A stretch of 32,662 nucleotides of DNA from Peduovirus P22H1: the sequence record NC_049386.1, one strand, 5' to 3'. The notes beneath the pieces were generated by a model. The model saw nothing but the letters and a program-made list of their open reading frames with translations. It did not search any database and was not told where the DNA came from. This document shows, one piece after another, positions 29,442-29,597 of the stretch (position 1 is its first letter; each line of letters starts with the position of its first letter). The translations under genes and the position numbers were made by a program.

Positions 29442-29597
29442 ATGAAGAATGATAAATTAACCAACGAACAGCAGGCGCAGAACAAGTCAAACCTGAAAAA
29501 GTGGGCTGGTTATGTTTGGAAATTAATCAAATGGGGTATTAGACTGTTTGATTTAGCCACTCGAGCACTGGACTACTTTGAAGGGGGTGATGAGTAA
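29442..29597 (+). CDS. Small Trp-rich amphipathic peptide (51 aa), function unknown
   Basis: ATG at 29442 with Shine-Dalgarno AAGGAG six nt upstream; product contains WAGYVWKLIKWGIRLF; the longer track ORF from 29205 runs through the structured region and is probably not translated. Confidence 0.45.
   Translation: MKNDKLTNEQQAQNKSNLKKWAGYVWKLIKWGIRLFDLATRALDYFEGGDE

Follow-up and report, generated by a model that had tools for sequence, protein, structure and literature searches.

Downstream of gene A in Peduovirus P22H1 (NC_049386.1; 32,662 nucleotides (nt), the whole of which is called the window below) lies an open reading frame (ORF) for 51 amino acids (aa), which we refer to as the small protein (SP) gene. 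The SP is in all likelihood the effector of a Type VI retron, and we consider it probable that it is, more specifically, a toxic effector of the 'Large' (Vpa2/Eco12) lineage of these retrons, held under the control of a hybrid RNA and released by multicopy single-stranded DNA (msDNA). This reading is carried by in silico evidence that the ORF is a real gene under selection, by its Type VI retron context, by homology of its product to the SP of Retron-Vpa2, and by an RNA architecture in which the Shine-Dalgarno (SD) sequence is sequestered and direct repeats are placed as in Vpa2.

Two preprints, in the parts on which we draw here, provide the frame for this comparison. In Vibrio parahaemolyticus, Zhang et al. 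(10.1101/2025.10.22.683967) described Retron-Vpa2, in which a 55-aa SP downstream of msr-msd is a toxic effector and is co-transcribed with msr-msd as a 'hybrid RNA' of ~470 nt; the ribosome-binding site (RBS) and AUG lie in stem-loops, and the SP is translated only after phage triggers have allowed a build-up of msDNA. For derepression the authors proposed a conserved 7-nt direct repeat, with copies in the msd loop and in the riboregulator loop; the msDNA measures 63 + 23 = 86 nt. Toxicity of the Vpa2 SP requires hydrophobic residues at its C-terminus, self-association is promoted by its N-terminus, and mutation of the gene for the helix-turn-helix (HTH) protein is toxic; the same source reports that E. 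coli Retron-Eco12 defends against lambda-vir and has no basal msDNA. In Salmonella Retron-Sen3, described by Garcia-Rodriguez et al. (10.64898/2026.04.27.721009), a toxic SP of 79 aa (cluster cl2075) is made constitutively and neutralised by the HTH protein, with RecBCD inhibition as the trigger; its coding sequence (CDS) lies in a conserved RNA framework, and the non-coding RNA (ncRNA) pairs over a long range with sequence just past the SP stop. Anti-phage defence has been reported for Vpa2, Eco12 and Sen3 alike (10.1101/2025.10.22.683967; 10.64898/2026.04.27.721009).

The small protein gene and its retron

The genes and signals on which the argument turns are these:
29430-29435, + strand: SD sequence AAGGAG of the SP gene, read from the sequence; 29430-29434 lie inside the anti-SD helix
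29442-29597, + strand: SP gene, 51-aa small protein, predicted toxic effector (reading frame, conservation, match to the Vpa2 SP, phrog_15287, synteny)
29634-29954, + strand: HTH protein, 106 aa, Cro/C1-type and Type VI retron-specific (PADLOC HTH_VI, 7.2e-30; start as in RefSeq)
29920-30870, + strand: retron reverse transcriptase (RT), 316 aa, with a YVDD motif (PADLOC RT_VI, 1.1e-105; Pfam RVT_1; RT alignment A2)

The SP frame opens with an ATG at 29442, separated from AAGGAG by the six nt CAAATC (29436-29441), and its stop codon ends at 29597 on the + strand; the letters and the 51-aa product (MKNDKLTNEQQAQNKSNLKKWAGYVWKLIKWGIRLFDLATRALDYFEGGDE) are identical to those given in an earlier note on this DNA, which was made from the sequence alone. 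That note had also singled out the SD as the strongest in the island, and indeed, of the three instances of AAGGAG followed by ATG after 4-8 nt in the 32.6-kb window (0.89 expected), only one is in the island after gene A, 5' of the SP ORF.

The frame is conserved well beyond the window. Of 5426 complete E. coli genomes, 100 carry the locus, with identities ranging from ~75% to 100%, and RefSeq lists a 51-aa hypothetical protein at the same position in four divergent versions, among them two loci outside P2 prophages (L004 and L006). Across 14 non-redundant loci, the SP frame is exactly 153 nt long without an indel or a stop, the pairwise ratio of nonsynonymous to synonymous change (dN/dS) runs from 0.11 to 0.54 and is below 1 in every informative pair, and the variable columns of the alignment number 27, 24 and 39 at codon positions 1, 2 and 3. 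The comparative set was built from viral contigs and exact-protein look-ups; an RT-based search for related loci in genome contigs returned none, and the RT alignment found only three loci. Judged by these patterns of substitution, the SP ORF is a real gene under purifying selection.

An exhaustive profile search of 1.8 billion representative proteins extended the family to 15 clusters (E up to 0.001), one of which, an 828-aa protein with nine short matched stretches, was taken as a spurious match. The 14 clusters that were kept are mostly of 47-55 aa, two having N-terminal extensions as called (92 and 99 aa), and have in common the motif M..[ED]QQAQ..K..W..IR..[FL]EGGDE. Distant loci retain the SD, ATG and stop despite nucleotide divergence, and the SP-HTH-RT order is kept in all six distant homologues, with an HTH gene of ~103 aa followed by a ~317-aa ORF of RT size; Pfam RVT_1 is on record, faintly, for one of these six ORFs. 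The earlier note had proposed conservation of the small ORF in related islands as a check, and the frame is thus retained among near and distant relatives. The family is also carried by Klebsiella P2-like phages. A database homologue, P0017 (MLEQTYRLHTMGIREQIMKNDKLTNEQQAQNKSNLKKVGWLRLEINQMGY), is a frameshifted SP that matches the window SP through residue 20 and then diverges, which suggests, as far as its sequence can tell, occasional inactivation of a toxin gene.

It is worth considering where the gene begins, because the frame is open upstream of 29442 in the window. The real gene might be the longer ORF 29205-29597 (130 aa, TTG start) or a 97-aa version with an ATG start, and such an extension is present in some database entries and in phrog_5826 (97 aa). 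However, the extension is out of frame or closed in nine related loci (L004, L005, L006, L018, L019, L024, L025, L026 and L027) in which the nucleotides stay conserved, covarying RNA helices occupy the region before the ATG, and the form called in RefSeq is the one of 51 aa; we give the longer gene next to no credence. Because the upstream extension is kept as nucleotides and not as a frame, we place the SP start at ATG 29442 and take the region before it to be an RNA signature, not protein. The calls that reach 40-50 codons upstream across the ncRNA (92-99 aa: P0009, P0011, P0022 and phrog_5826) are over-extended, an artefact.

The SP peptide itself finds no match in Pfam, NCBIfam or PADLOC. 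RefSeq already lists the ORF as a hypothetical protein of 51 aa (WP_001754918.1), and PHROGs has a family for it (phrog_15287, 3e-39) with function listed as unknown; hence the suggestion that the peptide might be an unannotated part of the HTH-RT system stands as regards the system and falls as regards annotation. Its description as a Trp-rich amphipathic helix agrees with the peptide's properties: the 51 residues include three Trp and seven aromatic residues in all, the net charge is +2, the maximum helical hydrophobic moment is 0.71 (residues 27-44), and an AlphaFold2 model from a shallow alignment gives a single helix over residues 3-47 with a mean pLDDT confidence score of 76.8.

The surroundings are those of a retron. 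The window is a P2-like prophage with the retron in the variable region after gene A, a replication endonuclease gene (ORF 26695-29025; Pfam Phage_GPA, 7e-123) immediately upstream of the retron region, and the order from there is an AT-rich gap, a conserved non-coding stretch, the SP ORF, the HTH gene, the RT gene and then an FRG gene on the opposite strand. The HTH and RT genes overlap by 35 nt, and the N-terminus MLHxAL of the HTH protein is a conserved start among the aligned loci. The RT covers 278 of the 279 positions of the PADLOC RT_VI profile, the next-best family being far weaker. Both features by which a Type VI retron was recognised, an RT of this profile with an intact YxDD motif and a small HTH gene (91-110 aa) before or overlapping the RT gene, are present. 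From its gene order and its HTH_VI and RT_VI matches, the locus is a Type VI retron in the classification of Mestre et al. 2020.

Within this type, two lines of evidence tie the locus to Vpa2. When the Vpa2 SP sequence, reassembled from fragments in Table S3 of 10.64898/2026.04.27.721009, is scored with the family profile, the alignment runs end to end and reaches 13.1 bits, whereas none of 2000 shuffles matched in composition exceeds 8.0; the SP of locus L026 scores 22.3 bits in the profile comparison. The latter SP bridges the two groups, having NNTHRDQQVN and AYRIWY as in Vpa2 and ending in GGGDE as in the window (its RT is 55% identical), and the layout M..[ED]QQ[AV]..basic..R..F[DE]GGD is common to the window SP and the Vpa2 SP. 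As the SP sequence has diverged, the link between the two proteins rests on the profile and not on pairwise similarity; by that profile, the window SP is homologous to the Vpa2 SP, an experimentally toxic effector. Likewise, the RTs of two related loci, L002 (81% identical to the window RT) and L004 (62%), stand, in the published Type VI RT tree, among the leaves of the 'Large' lineage, to which Vpa2 belongs (10.64898/2026.04.27.721009). The idea that the peptide is a small toxin of the HTH-RT system, put forward in the earlier note, accordingly gains support from its Type VI neighbours and its toxic homologue, at the level of sequence comparison.

The predicted hybrid RNA

The SP ORF is embedded in a structured RNA, and does not lie between such an RNA and the HTH-RT genes, as had been supposed. 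The predicted elements, all on the + strand, are as follows:
29140-29620 (ends approximate), + strand: predicted hybrid RNA with an msr-msd-like arm, a riboregulator arm with the SD and AUG, and an SP-coding arm, closed by pairing of its 3' end (fold and covariation)
29206-29221 and 29223-29240, + strand: two short conserved msr-like hairpins in the first arm, stems invariant or compensated (pairs 123/135, 124/134, 125/133, 145/152)
29250-29339, + strand: predicted msd of ~90 nt, made up of a long stem that is hypervariable inside (29250-29308) and a 3' hairpin (29313-29339), like Vpa2 in size and layout
29323-29329, + strand: first copy of the direct repeat, GGGCGAC, placed in the msd 3' hairpin loop (invariant columns in alignment A3)
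29340-29351, + strand: 5' arm of helix H1, TGGAGCAGGGGG, pairing with 29604-29616 (12 pairs, 97% paired)
29356-29363, + strand: 5' arm of helix H2, TGCTGTTC, pairing with SP codons 9-11 at 29466-29473 (covariation)
29371-29378, + strand: anti-SD, TCCTTATG, pairing with CATAAGGA at 29427-29434 and covering five of the six SD bases (inverted repeat I18; 99% paired; three pairs compensated in L026)
29380-29386, + strand: direct repeat copy 2, GGGCGAA, conserved, in an internal loop beside the anti-SD; proposed msDNA landing site
29387-29425, + strand: riboregulator inner stem-loop, 29387-29394 with 29418-29425 plus an apical stem (four of eight pairs changed on both sides)
29474-29479, + strand: 5' arm of helix H7, GGCGCA, in SP codons 11-13, pairing with TGCGTC at 29598-29603 (four of six pairs compensated, 100% paired)
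29598-29616, + strand: conserved tail after the SP stop, consisting of the H7 3' arm (29598-29603) and the H1 3' arm (29604-29616, CTCCCTAGTTTCA), nearly invariant even in distant loci

Segment 29140-29625 has a minimum free energy of -164.6 kcal/mol (z = -5.33 against 100 shuffles), and the RNAalifold consensus of 14 loci has the same three-arm architecture, with 114 pairs of which 37 carry compensatory changes. For 48 key pairs, 97.5% of the alignment cells are paired, as against 38-48% when the partners are slid; none of 500 shuffles reaches the observed values, and 15 of the 48 are changed on both sides. Helices H1, H2 and H7 close the junction of the hybrid RNA, the third arm being the rest of the SP coding sequence. 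By analogy with Vpa2, 29250-29339 is predicted to be the msd, that is, the template for reverse transcription. Rfam has no family for any of this, either in the whole window at gathering thresholds or in 29030-29700 at E up to 1.

The riboregulator hairpin has an identical fold in 14 of 14 loci and is recognisable in five of six distant ones; the anti-SD helix is 91.7% paired across 15 divergent loci (37-66% when slid), and compensated SD/anti-SD variants occur in distant loci, with UCCUA facing UAGGA and UCCUCGUG facing CAUGAGGA. Conservation of both GGGCGA repeats extends from alignment A3 to the distant loci, in which GGCGA persists near -65 from the ATG. Two bases of the start codon, the A and the U, are themselves paired (p ~0.98) in a small hairpin, 29439-29443 with 29449-29453. 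The RBS that the earlier note described as near-ideal is so in its motif, but a near-ideal SD need not mean strong translation, because this one is predicted to pair with a conserved anti-SD.

Some further features of the region deserve mention in their own right. In L031, a distant SP-HTH-RT locus (Logan SRR29844875 contig, 2416-2503), the SD is GGAGG, there is no obvious anti-SD of the usual form and GGCGA repeats stand at -141 and -83; from its sequence, this may be a variant riboregulator. In the window, the predicted 5' stem-loop of the msDNA (29313-29339 versus 29369-29399) has AAAGGG beside the complement of the repeat, and this AAAGGG could pair with the UCCUU of the anti-SD in addition to the pairing at GGGCGA, thereby mimicking the SD and titrating the anti-SD; we do not propose such mimicry as a general mechanism, because the msd stem sequence differs in L005 and L024. 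Two other candidates were set aside: the window-specific inverted repeat I4 (29122-29137 with 29604-29619) as an a1/a2 pair, since relatives do not keep its 5' arm, which is probably part of the promoter or 5' of it, and the 8-nt direct repeat TGGAGCAG (29340 and 29396) as the published repeat, since its second copy is not conserved.

The embedding of a gene in this RNA means that some of its codons serve twice. The SP codons for E-Q-Q-A-Q (29466-29479) form arms of two helices, with 29356-29363 and with 29598-29603. The 8-nt arm GA[A/T/C]CAGCA, which holds the E/D-Q-Q codons, is matched, in every one of 19 loci, by a perfect reverse complement lying 85-110 nt before the ATG, each of the variants GAA, GAT and GAC in H2 being compensated in the upstream partner; at the other end, third positions of codons 11-12 co-vary with nucleotides just past the stop codon, and the Ala codon GCG/GCA co-varies with C/T after the stop, giving nine GC and five AU pairs. 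Through this pairing and covariation with non-coding sequence, the peptide motif that is best conserved in the SP doubles as an RNA element. It is tempting to go further and to suppose that N-E-Q-Q-A-Q (codons 8-13) is dictated largely by the RNA and that translation of the SP unzips the H2/H7 clamp. If so, the first ribosome on the SP would open the helices that hold the RT template and the riboregulator, and the switch would therefore be self-reinforcing and possibly irreversible; SP translation would then also remodel or terminate msDNA synthesis. We regard this as a long shot. Co-translational feedback of this kind is not described in the sections consulted of 10.1101/2025.10.22.683967 and 10.64898/2026.04.27.721009.

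The same double use raises the question of whether the frame is translated at all. If its conservation came from retron ncRNA structure only, the SD-ATG pair would be fortuitous, and the use of SP codons 9-13 by H2 and H7, co-varying with non-coding partners, does mean that part of the CDS is constrained as RNA. Structure alone sits poorly, however, with a dN/dS below 1 throughout, with the enrichment of variation at third positions and the want of indels and stops in the 14 loci, and with the retention of SD, ATG and stop in distant loci whose nucleotides have diverged; furthermore, the homologous Vpa2 SP, and the Sen3 SP, are translated and toxic. An untranslated frame is in our judgement hardly credible.

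Control and action of the small protein

In the mechanism that we propose, the SP would be transcribed within one structured hybrid RNA of ~480 nt that also holds the template for reverse transcription. At rest, the SD would be in a helix with the anti-SD and the AUG in the small hairpin, and because both are held in RNA structure little SP would be made; the silence would be kept by the fold of the hybrid RNA, probably with bound RT and HTH. On phage infection, for example via recombination or anti-RecBCD functions, msDNA made by the RT would accumulate, and its loop repeat, the complement of GGGCGAC, would pair with the GGGCGAA beside the anti-SD. This pairing would open the riboregulator, the SP would be translated and the infected cell arrested (abortive infection). 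Toxicity, the msDNA trigger and derepression would thus hold for the window retron by homology to Vpa2, and Vpa2-type translational control of the SP is the form of regulation towards which we lean.

The resemblance to Vpa2 that underlies this mechanism takes in several features. Both systems have the operon order structured RNA, SP, HTH, RT, with an SP of ~50-55 aa on the same strand between msr-msd and the HTH gene (51 aa here versus 55 aa), and the two SPs, related by homology, run from a polar [ED]QQ N-terminus through a basic middle and an aromatic/hydrophobic helix to a C-terminal F[DE]GGD. In the window, as in Vpa2, the SP CDS is inside a three-arm RNA, with a sequestered RBS and AUG in stem-loops and a 3' end that pairs back, all of this being predicted in silico here. 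Direct repeats of 7 nt occupy the msd loop and the riboregulator loop, the published repeat being matched by description and not by its letters, the predicted msd of ~90 nt compares with an 86-nt msDNA, and the RT falls in the 'Large' lineage. The window retron differs in its home, an E. coli P2-like prophage hotspot, and in an SP helix that is more amphipathic and less uniformly hydrophobic.

Several points weigh against this interpretation. When the RNA is modelled in isolation, the thermodynamic ensemble gives the SD a pairing probability of only ~0.47 and the centroid structure lacks the anti-SD helix; with the SD only ~50% paired, repression may leak or depend on bound RT and HTH. Covariation support for the anti-SD helix is modest, since this helix hardly varies, two of its pairs showing double changes, and L031 folds differently before the SP start. 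Pairwise BLAST of the window SP with the Vpa2 SP is weak, finding only the C-terminal LxxF[ED]GGD at E 0.034, and the Vpa2 query is itself a reconstruction from supplementary-table fragments. The evidence on this exact sequence is in silico throughout.

Incomplete occlusion of the SD also leaves room for control of the Sen3 kind, in which the SP would be constitutive, the HTH protein a post-translational antitoxin, phage inhibition of RecBCD the releasing event, and the RNA a scaffold for reverse transcription and complex assembly. Such control has been demonstrated for a Type VI retron, Sen3 (10.64898/2026.04.27.721009), and this, too, counts against our proposal, as do the SD pairing of only ~0.47 and the absence of the anti-SD helix from the centroid fold; the HTH gene follows the SP at a fixed short distance in all loci, and in Vpa2 as well HTH mutation is toxic (10.1101/2025.10.22.683967). 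The window and Sen3 share the retron type and gene order, the Sen3 SP is toxic and its HTH protein is required for viability, and the long-range pairing in the Sen3 RNA has its analogues in H1, H2 and H7. However, Sen3 belongs to RT subclade cl2075 and not to 'Large', its 79-aa SP, built of two or three helices, shares no sequence similarity with the Vpa2 type, and it makes single-stranded DNA and SP constitutively, with regulation after translation (10.64898/2026.04.27.721009). The window SP, with 51 aa and one modelled helix, falls outside the cl2075/cl2760/cl3272 group of Sen3-type SPs, which have 75-79 aa and form a two- or three-helix bundle, and shows no sequence resemblance to the Sen3, Yersinia or Xenorhabdus SPs. 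Close relatives have RTs that group with Vpa2 in the 'Large' lineage, the elements postulated for the Vpa2 riboregulator (the anti-SD helix and both GGGCGA repeats) are conserved here, and the E. coli Type VI retron Eco12 has no basal msDNA, like Vpa2 and unlike Sen3 (10.1101/2025.10.22.683967). On balance we find Sen3-type control unlikely as the principal regime; it and Vpa2-type control are the main rivals, they are not mutually exclusive, and the two may coexist.

How the SP would arrest a cell is a separate matter, compatible with either form of regulation. One view, to which the earlier note also pointed, is that it kills as a membrane-active amphipathic helix, pore-forming or depolarising in the manner of type I toxins or holins. 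The hydrophobic moment of 0.71 over residues 27-44, the charge of +2, the three Trp and the single long modelled helix speak for this, the SPs of L004 and L026 approach transmembrane hydrophobicity (mean Kyte-Doolittle value over 19 residues, KD(19), of 1.3-1.6), and toxicity of the Vpa2 SP needs hydrophobic C-terminal residues, with self-association promoted by its N-terminus (10.1101/2025.10.22.683967). In the window SP, however, the most hydrophobic 19-residue stretch reaches a KD(19) of only 0.61 and includes K, R and D, and because of this low maximum and the charged residues along the helix a transmembrane helix is unlikely; hence it does not have the one or more hydrophobic transmembrane segments expected of a type I toxin or holin. 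Moreover, pore formers do not typically have termini like those of the SP, an invariant acidic F-E-G-G-D-E at the C-terminus and a polar EQQAQ at the N-terminus, and both preprints, in the parts used here, state or imply that the SP target is unknown, one suggesting protein-protein interaction (10.1101/2025.10.22.683967; 10.64898/2026.04.27.721009). A membrane-active SP therefore seems doubtful to us.

It is informative to set the proposed mechanism beside more familiar systems. Like canonical retrons (Retron-Eco1/Ec86, Sen2), the window locus would combine an RT, a structured msr-msd RNA and a toxic effector in an abortive-infection logic, but in canonical retrons abundant msDNA acts as antitoxin and keeps a separately encoded effector inactive, whereas the Vpa2-type model has little msDNA at rest, and the msDNA serves to switch on translation of an effector that lies within the RNA of the retron itself (10.1101/2025.10.22.683967). 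With Type I toxin-antitoxin systems (Hok, TisB) and RNA-controlled leader peptides it would share a tiny toxic peptide, an occluded SD and an RNA rearrangement that gates translation; it differs in having no antisense RNA gene, in reverse-transcribed DNA as the proposed trigger and in an SP without a transmembrane segment, and no sequence relationship of the SP to Type I toxins was found in the Pfam, PADLOC and NCBIfam scans.

Neighbouring genes and significance

Upstream of the hybrid RNA, the AT-rich spacer between gene A and the retron (29026-29135) contains several short inverted and direct repeats (I1, I3, I6 and D2); only a TATA block within it is kept in relatives. A scan for consensus sigma-70 promoters called none in this spacer. 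The block, presumably the retron's promoter region on the evidence of its sequence, is:
29122-29131, + strand: putative -10-like TATA-rich element of the retron promoter, a weak call (the only conserved block, columns 23-28, in the divergent 5' flank of alignment A3)

On the other side, convergent with the retron, lies a gene for a 454-aa FRG-domain protein (30979-32343, - strand; Pfam FRG 2.4e-21; PADLOC PDC-S15, a candidate defence family, 7e-98). Its place is taken by different small hypothetical genes in the O157:H7 and ET350 prophage versions, and from these matches it looks like a second, independent cargo gene of the P2 hotspot. The position of the retron in the P2 variable region beside this FRG/PDC-S15 gene is consistent, by analogy, with an anti-phage defence role. 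In L001 (NZ_AP022173.1, 6865-7871, past the window's right end), whose retron region is 100% identical to the window, an IS21-like ISEc12 transposase follows the FRG gene, at a position where other P2-like prophages have the portal gene.

Diverged versions of the full cassette (hybrid RNA, SP, HTH and RT) also occur outside P2 prophages, in L004 (NZ_CP010122.1, 4001-5690) and in L006, an Enterobacteriaceae metagenome-assembled genome; the L004 cassette is near yeiP and adjoins a YkgJ-family gene, a DUF4236 gene and a recombinase. Since the whole cassette is found in such places, the retron moves as a unit, the SP-containing RNA included.

The SPs of Type VI retrons were already described experimentally in 2025-2026, and the finding in the window is a correct rediscovery. 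As the discovery had been made, what the window adds is comparative support only, drawn from the P2 lineage of enterobacteria, namely the conserved anti-SD, the repeats and the dual constraint on coding and structure. Nonetheless, a reading of raw sequence can recover a genuine and very small defence effector that Pfam, NCBIfam and PADLOC leave blank. This Type VI retron, borne by P2 prophages or islands, occurs in about 2% (100 of 5426) of the complete E. coli genomes, its toxin gene being listed as a 'hypothetical protein' or mis-extended across the ncRNA. The system is of interest because, on the Vpa2-type model, it would hold a toxin inside the retron's own RNA, to be switched on by reverse-transcribed DNA.

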